IMG/VR virus record: IMGVR_UViG_2698536312_000011 | DNA: 7,114 bases | Strand: one strand, 5' to 3' | Origin: a virus | Lineage: Duplodnaviria; Heunggongvirae; Uroviricota; Caudoviricetes | The notes under the pieces: model-generated | Databases searched by the model: none | Told to the model about the DNA's origin: nothing | The model's input: the letters and a program-made list of their open reading frames with translations, nothing else | Shown: positions 4,165-4,411 of the stretch, piece by piece | Position numbering within the stretch: the first letter of the stretch is position 1 | Layout of the letters: each line of letters begins with the position of its first letter | Made by a program: the position numbers and the translations under genes

Positions 4165-4305
4165 ATGCAATATGCCATTGCAGGGTGGCCTGTTGCTGGC
4201 TGCCCTTCCGAATCTTTACTTGAACGAATCACCCGTAAATTACGTGACGGATGGAAACGACTCATCGACGTACTTAATCAGCCAGGAGTTCCCAAAAATG
4301 GATAA
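4165..4305 (+). CDS. cIII: CIII (FtsH inhibitor, protects CII), 46 aa; appears truncated by a nonsense codon relative to the 54-aa lambda CIII
   Basis: Strong Shine-Dalgarno (AAGGAG) 6 nt upstream. MQYAIAGWPVAGCPSESLLERITRKLRDGWKRLIDVLNQPGVPKNG matches lambda CIII as I recall it, apart from I to V at one position. The frame continues after TAA 4303-4305 as NTYGYPD to TAA 4327-4329, reproducing the lambda C-terminus. Missed by the ORF track because it is short. Confidence 0.8.
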   Translation: MQYAIAGWPVAGCPSESLLERITRKLRDGWKRLIDVLNQPGVPKNG

Positions 4306-4411
4306 AACACTTATGGCTATCCAGACTAAATTCACTATCGCCACTTTTATTGGCGATGAAAAGATGTTTCGTGAAGCCGTCGAAGCCTATAAAAAATGGA
4401 GGTCAAAATGA
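4298..4411 (+). CDS. kil: Kil-like host-killing protein (FtsZ-ring inhibitor family), 37 aa
   Basis: ATG at 4298 overlaps the 3' end of cIII, as kil does in lambda. MDKTLMAIQTKFTIATFIGDEKMFREAV... resembles the lambda Kil N-terminus as I recall it. AGGAG lies about 10 nt upstream. The ORF-track start at 4172 is rejected. Confidence 0.7.
   Translation: MDKTLMAIQTKFTIATFIGDEKMFREAVEAYKKWRSK

Follow-up and report, generated by a model that had tools for sequence, protein, structure and literature searches.

The CIII protein of phage lambda is an inhibitor of the host protease FtsH (HflB). Reference lambda CIII (NC_001416, 33299-33463; NP_040620.1) has 54 residues, MQYAIAGWPVAGCPSESLLERITRKLRDGWKRLIDILNQPGVPKNGSNTYGYPD, with the C-terminal end ...PKNGSNTYGYPD. 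In the passage of Kobiler 2007 (PMC1838920) that cites Kornitzer 1991, residues 14-37 are reported to be both essential and sufficient. The cIII gene of phage HK620 (NP_112048.1, HK620p15) is shorter and ends in TAA at codon 47. Its database record describes it as lambda cIII-like and short versus similar proteins, and blames an internal stop codon. A short cIII allele is already known in this sense, having been noted for HK620 in 2001, while among the publications found that name both HK620 and cIII none discussed it. In phage P22, C3 (NP_059599.1, 52 aa) shares the core up to ...NQPGVP and c3 is followed by an overlapping kil, but its tail, SHDYCAC, is unrelated to that of lambda, and homologues of 42 residues have no tail at all. 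We used P22 C3 as the outgroup in place of HK022 cIII, which was not found by tblastn in positions 20000-30000 of NC_002166.

We analyzed a stretch of 7,114 nucleotides, here called the window, which is the whole of contig CXDB01000179.1 from assembly GCA_001256715.1. In the window, cIII occupies 4165..4305 on the + strand (listed as an open reading frame of 46 codons plus TAA). Read directly from the ATG at 4165, the product is MQYAIAGWPVAGCPSESLLERITRKLRDGWKRLIDVLNQPGVPKNG. A ribosome-binding site read from the sequence, TAAGGAG (4152..4158, +), lies 6 nt 5' of the ATG and is the same in lambda and JEP4 in the nucleotide alignment. The TAA at codon 47 (4303..4305, +) was established by alignment with lambda and JEP4 and by allele-specific searches. 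The gene order N-cIII-kil is common to the window, lambda, HK620, and P22. The window protein matches lambda CIII at 45 of its 46 residues (I36V), and the two cIII genes have the same ribosome-binding site, sit at the same place in the pL operon, and overlap kil alike, but the loci differ downstream, where lambda has gam/bet/exo and the window has Sak4 and Abc2. The likeness to HK620 and HK629 is closer. HK620 cIII has the same length and the same TAA, the cIII reading frame of HK629 carries the same TAA allele and encodes a protein identical to that of the window, and the 55 nt surrounding the stop are identical to the window in both phages. HK629, JEP4, and E. coli prophages (WP_001198866.1) have identical or near-identical 46-aa CIII proteins. 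HK620 and HK629 also share with the window the overlap with a 37-aa kil, hkaM, a Sak4-like ATPase, a 195-aa protein, and abc2. Elsewhere the window differs from the HK620-type module by a few silent or conservative changes, and its arm has been detached from the immunity region by an IS630-type element.

The base that sets the short form apart from lambda CIII is at position 4304, which is A in the window and C in lambda. This is the sole difference within codon 47 (TAA versus TCA). Past the stop, the cIII frame reads AAC ACT TAT GGC TAT CCA GAC TAA, that is NTYGYPD followed by a second stop at 4327-4329. This untranslated 'ghost' of the cIII tail (4306..4329, +) corresponds to kil codons 3-10 read in the other frame and matches lambda at 24 of 24 nucleotides, so that shared sequence, not chance, accounts for its likeness to the lambda tail. 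A preliminary description of this DNA, made from the letters alone, had placed the stop and the continuing frame at exactly these positions, had given the C-terminus of a 54-aa lambda CIII, and had proposed a single C/A difference at 4304; the coordinates all hold, the terminus agrees with NC_001416, and the base difference is seen in the nucleotide alignment. The same description had singled out the stop as an apparent nonsense mutation in this DNA. Here our results differ, as the counts from phages, genomes, and IMG/VR given below identify instead a common, old, and recombining natural allele. The intact ghost tail has no value as a sign of a recent event because selection on Kil, in which they form codons 3-10, keeps its bases unchanged regardless of cIII. 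Its coding sequence is unchanged only owing to this overlap, and a stop-free run of seven codons would be unremarkable by chance too. The outgroup tails do not align and so give no direction for the change between TCA and TAA.

We compared the 46-aa protein with the CIII family. Residues 2-43 cover positions 1-42 of the 42 positions of the Pfam model PF02061 (Lambda_CIII) with 104.4 bits, against a cut-off of 25.7, and 54-aa lambda CIII scores 105.4 bits. The NCBIfam collection has no model for CIII or Kil and returned a single chance sub-threshold match to SecE. As the preliminary description had supposed, the central region is retained: residues 14-37 are all present, reading PSESLLERITRKLRDGWKRLIDVL in the window where lambda has ...IDIL, with 23 of 24 residues identical. 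Owing to the TAA at codon 47, the window CIII does not have the lambda-like tail SNTYGYPD, and these eight lost residues lie outside both the 42-position Pfam domain and the 14-37 region. In the aligned homologues, conservation extends up to ...NQPGVP and the sequences then diverge. An Intestinirhabdus homologue, for example, ends in TYDHYAN, some natural forms end at 42 or 43 residues, and natural lengths range from 42 to 56 aa. The tail is no feature of the family, being outside the Pfam model and differing or missing in P22 and other homologues. The 46-aa protein ends three residues past the conserved ...NQPGVP, and the eight missing residues are a non-conserved tail. The gene is also where a cIII gene is expected in a pL operon: it lies 3' of N, its end runs into kil, and all three genes are on the + strand.

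Taken together, we consider it very probable that the window cIII is the HK620-type natural short allele and that its product works much like lambda CIII, a reading based on sequence comparison. A literature search for experiments on the 46-aa CIII found none. In the proposed mechanism, the amphipathic central helix (residues 14-37) would bind and competitively inhibit the host protease FtsH. CII would thereby be spared and lysogeny favored.

To determine how common the TAA allele is, we used 55-nt megablast queries in which base 28 is the variant. Each query finds its own allele only, because every 28-nt seed must include the variant base. Among phage records, 77 carried TAA and 134 carried TCA, about one third TAA. 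Among 5,426 complete E. coli genomes, TAA was found in 221 genomes at 249 places and TCA in 946 genomes at 1,112 places, so that TAA accounts for about one fifth of the allele-typed cIII copies. A scan of IMG/VR with a degenerate pattern gave, among the matches listed, 31 TAA and 89 TCA contigs out of 120, or about one quarter TAA. These fractions are rough, as near-identical Stx phage and O157 records inflate the counts. The preliminary description had allowed that the stop would be a natural short allele if homologous prophages mostly carried it. In substance the stop is such an allele, although its carriers, numerous as they are, are outnumbered by those of TCA. Given this predominance of TCA, there may be weak selection for the longer tail.

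The carriers of TAA include the free temperate phages HK620, HK629, JEP4, and APC_JM3.2, many Stx1a- and Stx2a-converting phages, and prophages with an intact repressor and cII. An exact-sequence look-up gave at least 1000 contigs for the 46-residue CIII, whose entry is labelled MULTISPECIES Enterobacteriaceae. The corresponding protein WP_001198866.1 (46 aa) is named 'protease FtsH-inhibitory lysogeny factor CIII' by PGAP and has no pseudogene flag. The presence of the allele in hundreds of established prophages and in temperate isolates is what one would expect of a protein that works or, at the least, does no harm. Since many temperate phages and prophages are without them, the last eight residues of lambda CIII appear to be dispensable in nature. 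Recognizing the allele as common and natural also guards against its description as a lesion or as a pseudogene. A word-indexed protein search left the 46-aa and 54-aa forms unseparated, with a single 90% cluster for both. The representative of this 90%-identity cluster was a 122-aa DUF2528 (Ea10-like) protein, which looks like a clustering oddity or the result of read-through gene calls joining an upstream gene to cIII.

We then analyzed the backgrounds on which the allele occurs. Among the IMG/VR matches listed, TAA was found on at least five flanking haplotypes. In the same IMG/VR sample its CIII backbones had N-termini of the lambda type and of the HK022 type, and residue 36 was I, V, or L. 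The usual partners of TAA are a short Kil ending in RSK and a Sak4-type module, and those of TCA are a long Kil and gam. The window has the usual TAA partners, a 37-aa RSK Kil and a Sak4/Abc2 module. All four combinations of allele and Kil length exist. In strain FDAARGOS_944, for example, a TAA cIII precedes a Kil of 47 residues and gam/bet/exo. These patterns place a mosaic boundary close to the 3' end of cIII and kil, with recombinants of both kinds. We take the TAA allele to be old and to spread by recombination, mostly alongside the short kil and the Sak4/Abc2 module.

The kil gene of the window (4298..4411, +) is of the short 37-aa type ending in RSK, with Lys at position 3, and matches the Pfam model PF06301 (Lambda_Kil) with 75.7 bits. 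Its ATG is at 4298-4300, codon 3 (AAA) begins at 4304, and the stop TGA at 4409-4411 follows 37 codons. A ribosome-binding site, AGGAG (4284..4288, +), lies inside cIII, 9 nt 5' of the kil ATG, and is conserved in lambda. Residues 2-32 of Kil cover positions 1-31 of the 31 positions of the Pfam model, and the C-terminus, ...KKWRSK, is as in HK629 Kil. Lambda Kil has 47 residues with Gln at position 3, so that its N-terminus reads MDQTL, whereas the 37-aa window Kil begins MDKTL. The base at 4304 thus alters Kil codon 3 as well as the cIII stop (AAA Lys in the window, CAA Gln in lambda), as had been noted from the sequence in the preliminary description. A helix-turn-helix core of Kil (residues ~4-38 in lambda) and an RSK/RSSK motif have been described (PMC11762379), and the window Kil has both. 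In the same work (Naha, Cameron, Margolin, PMC11762379), the first five residues of lambda Kil could be deleted with division inhibition kept, and HK629 Kil' (residues 6-37 of the 37-aa Kil) disrupted Z rings and blocked division in a ZipA-dependent manner. The window Kil differs from HK629 Kil at 2 of 37 residues (V28 and K32 versus I28 and R32), both within residues 6-37. By analogy with HK629 Kil', the window Kil is a putative ZipA-dependent blocker of the FtsZ ring. A functional consequence of Q3K is unlikely, because Lys3 lies within the dispensable N-terminal five residues and HK629 Kil lacking these is active.

An alternative to a natural variant of no particular consequence is that TAA is adaptive. 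A stop placed just past the kil AUG, or the loss of the CIII tail, could tune the translation of Kil by termination-reinitiation or the turnover of CIII by FtsH. We regard this as improbable. The cIII stop does lie only 3-5 nt past the kil ATG, but kil has its own AGGAG, which is well spaced in both alleles, and Kil residue 3 is within the dispensable segment. The predicted RNA structure near the kil start is also equal for the two alleles: folding gave the same structure for A and C, with -10.3 kcal/mol and z-scores of ~0 versus shuffled sequences. Support for an adaptive allele also comes from its association with Kil type. Among the IMG/VR matches listed, TAA occurred with a short RSK-type Kil in 27 cases and with a long Kil in 3, and TCA occurred with a short Kil in 3 and a long Kil in 82 (Fisher p ~1e-19). 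However, the two sites are ~100 bp apart, so linkage alone suffices to explain the association, and all four recombinant classes are found. The simple view is that both belong to a single mosaic module and are linked for that reason. We hold it equally doubtful that TAA is non-neutral and co-adapted with the short RSK-type Kil and the Sak4 module, altering the amount of Kil or, by loss of an FtsH-exposed tail, the lifetime of CIII. The strong linkage of allele and module neatly illustrates a mosaic boundary in lambdoid phages and calls for no new mechanism.

The surroundings of cIII were analyzed for signs of decay. The left end of the contig is chromosomal, with the 3' end of a fliZ-like gene before position 295 and fliY/tcyJ at 295-1152. 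An IS630-type insertion sequence follows (1184..2340, -), with 19-nt terminal inverted repeats and a 343-aa DDE_3 transposase. It starts 31 bp past the fliY stop (flank 1153-1183) and directly abuts phage DNA, which begins at ~2341. A consensus scan identified a candidate pL-like promoter (TTGACC, 17 nt, TATCTT; 2492..2520, +), and operator-like palindromes at 2458-2492 and 2504-2518 flank this putative pL. The leftward early operon carrying cIII opens with the N antiterminator gene (2769..3152, +; Pfam PF25694, N_peptide). Between N and cIII are two open reading frames with no Pfam match, of 166 aa (3086-3586) and 149 aa (3595-4044). The 149-aa protein is rare, with 11 contigs, all short and from few related assemblies, and a terminator-like hairpin with a T run lies after its gene at 4049-4076. 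Downstream of kil, gene calls give a hkaM-like 62-aa open reading frame (4408..4596, +) whose start overlaps the kil stop (ATGA) and which, according to the annotation of HK620 and HK629, heads the HK620-type recombination module. It is followed by the Sak4-like ATPase (4605-5285; Pfam AAA_24), the 195-aa protein (5282-5869; gene calls), and Abc2 (5893-6189; Pfam Anti-RecBCD_p2).

No repressor, cro, or cII gene adjoins pL in this contig. In an intact relative, the cI repressor, cro, and cII genes are located just upstream of the point where the IS630-type element lies in the window. The pL-N-cIII-kil arm therefore appears to be cut off from the immunity region and cII. Since no cII or repressor gene is adjacent in the contig, the window CIII may be without its cognate target. 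Such a fragment, in which the IS630-type element (1184-2340) parts pL-N-cIII-kil from the repressor and cII, is where one might look for a private inactivating nonsense mutation in a cIII gene that is turning into a pseudogene within a prophage remnant, and the stop is premature relative to the lambda codon. But the same allele is carried by the viable phages HK620, HK629, and JEP4 and by 221 complete E. coli genomes, among them prophages with intact immunity regions, and the loss is limited to the non-conserved tail outside the Pfam domain. We consider private decay very improbable, more so than an adaptive role. Because the same allele is found in viable phages and in prophages with intact immunity, the short form predates the decay of this prophage and does not depend on it. 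With the natural short allele as the preferred reading, the window cIII would be a passenger in a prophage fragment, its short form inherited and older than the decay.

The least probable explanation, that base 4304 is a sequencing or assembly error, draws on the window being a short contig from a draft assembly and can practically be dismissed, as three further assemblies (GCA_001252135.1, GCA_001253095.1, and Logan ERR025736, a separate run) contain the 247 nt of cIII-kil in identical form and the TAA-bearing 55-mer is found in GCA_001252355.1, whose contig stops within kil, and in hundreds of finished genomes. With the same sequence in five independent assemblies, an error at 4304 is unlikely, and the base call is reliable. 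None of the complete E. coli genomes had a full-length match to the window.

We also considered a scan of one genome per species as evidence of host range and rejected it, as it returned TCA-type matches only, which we read as lambda DNA contamination. The 51-mer of lambda cIII-kil was found in assemblies labelled Shewanella, Pseudomonas, Neobacillus, Oceanobacillus, Kitasatospora, Bradyrhizobium, and others. Several of these matches were to low-coverage contigs of about 48.4-48.5 kb. The lambda cIII-kil sequence in these assemblies of unrelated organisms looks like contamination with lambda DNA.

The kil frame of the window has no stop between kil and an upstream ATG at 4172, and the resulting 79-aa open reading frame (4172-4411) covers nearly all of cIII. 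In the RefSeq record of HK629, the equivalent 79-aa frame (locus 2396-2635) is called 'Kil' and the 46-aa cIII is unannotated. Annotation of this region should be read with caution, as some records leave out the short cIII in favor of a 79-aa 'Kil' that starts at the upstream ATG. Another natural length variant was observed in E. coli E2348/69 (FM180568.1, locus 7071-7339), where a 43-aa Lambda_CIII gene overlaps a 50-aa Lambda_Kil gene and a Rad52-type recombinase module comes next.
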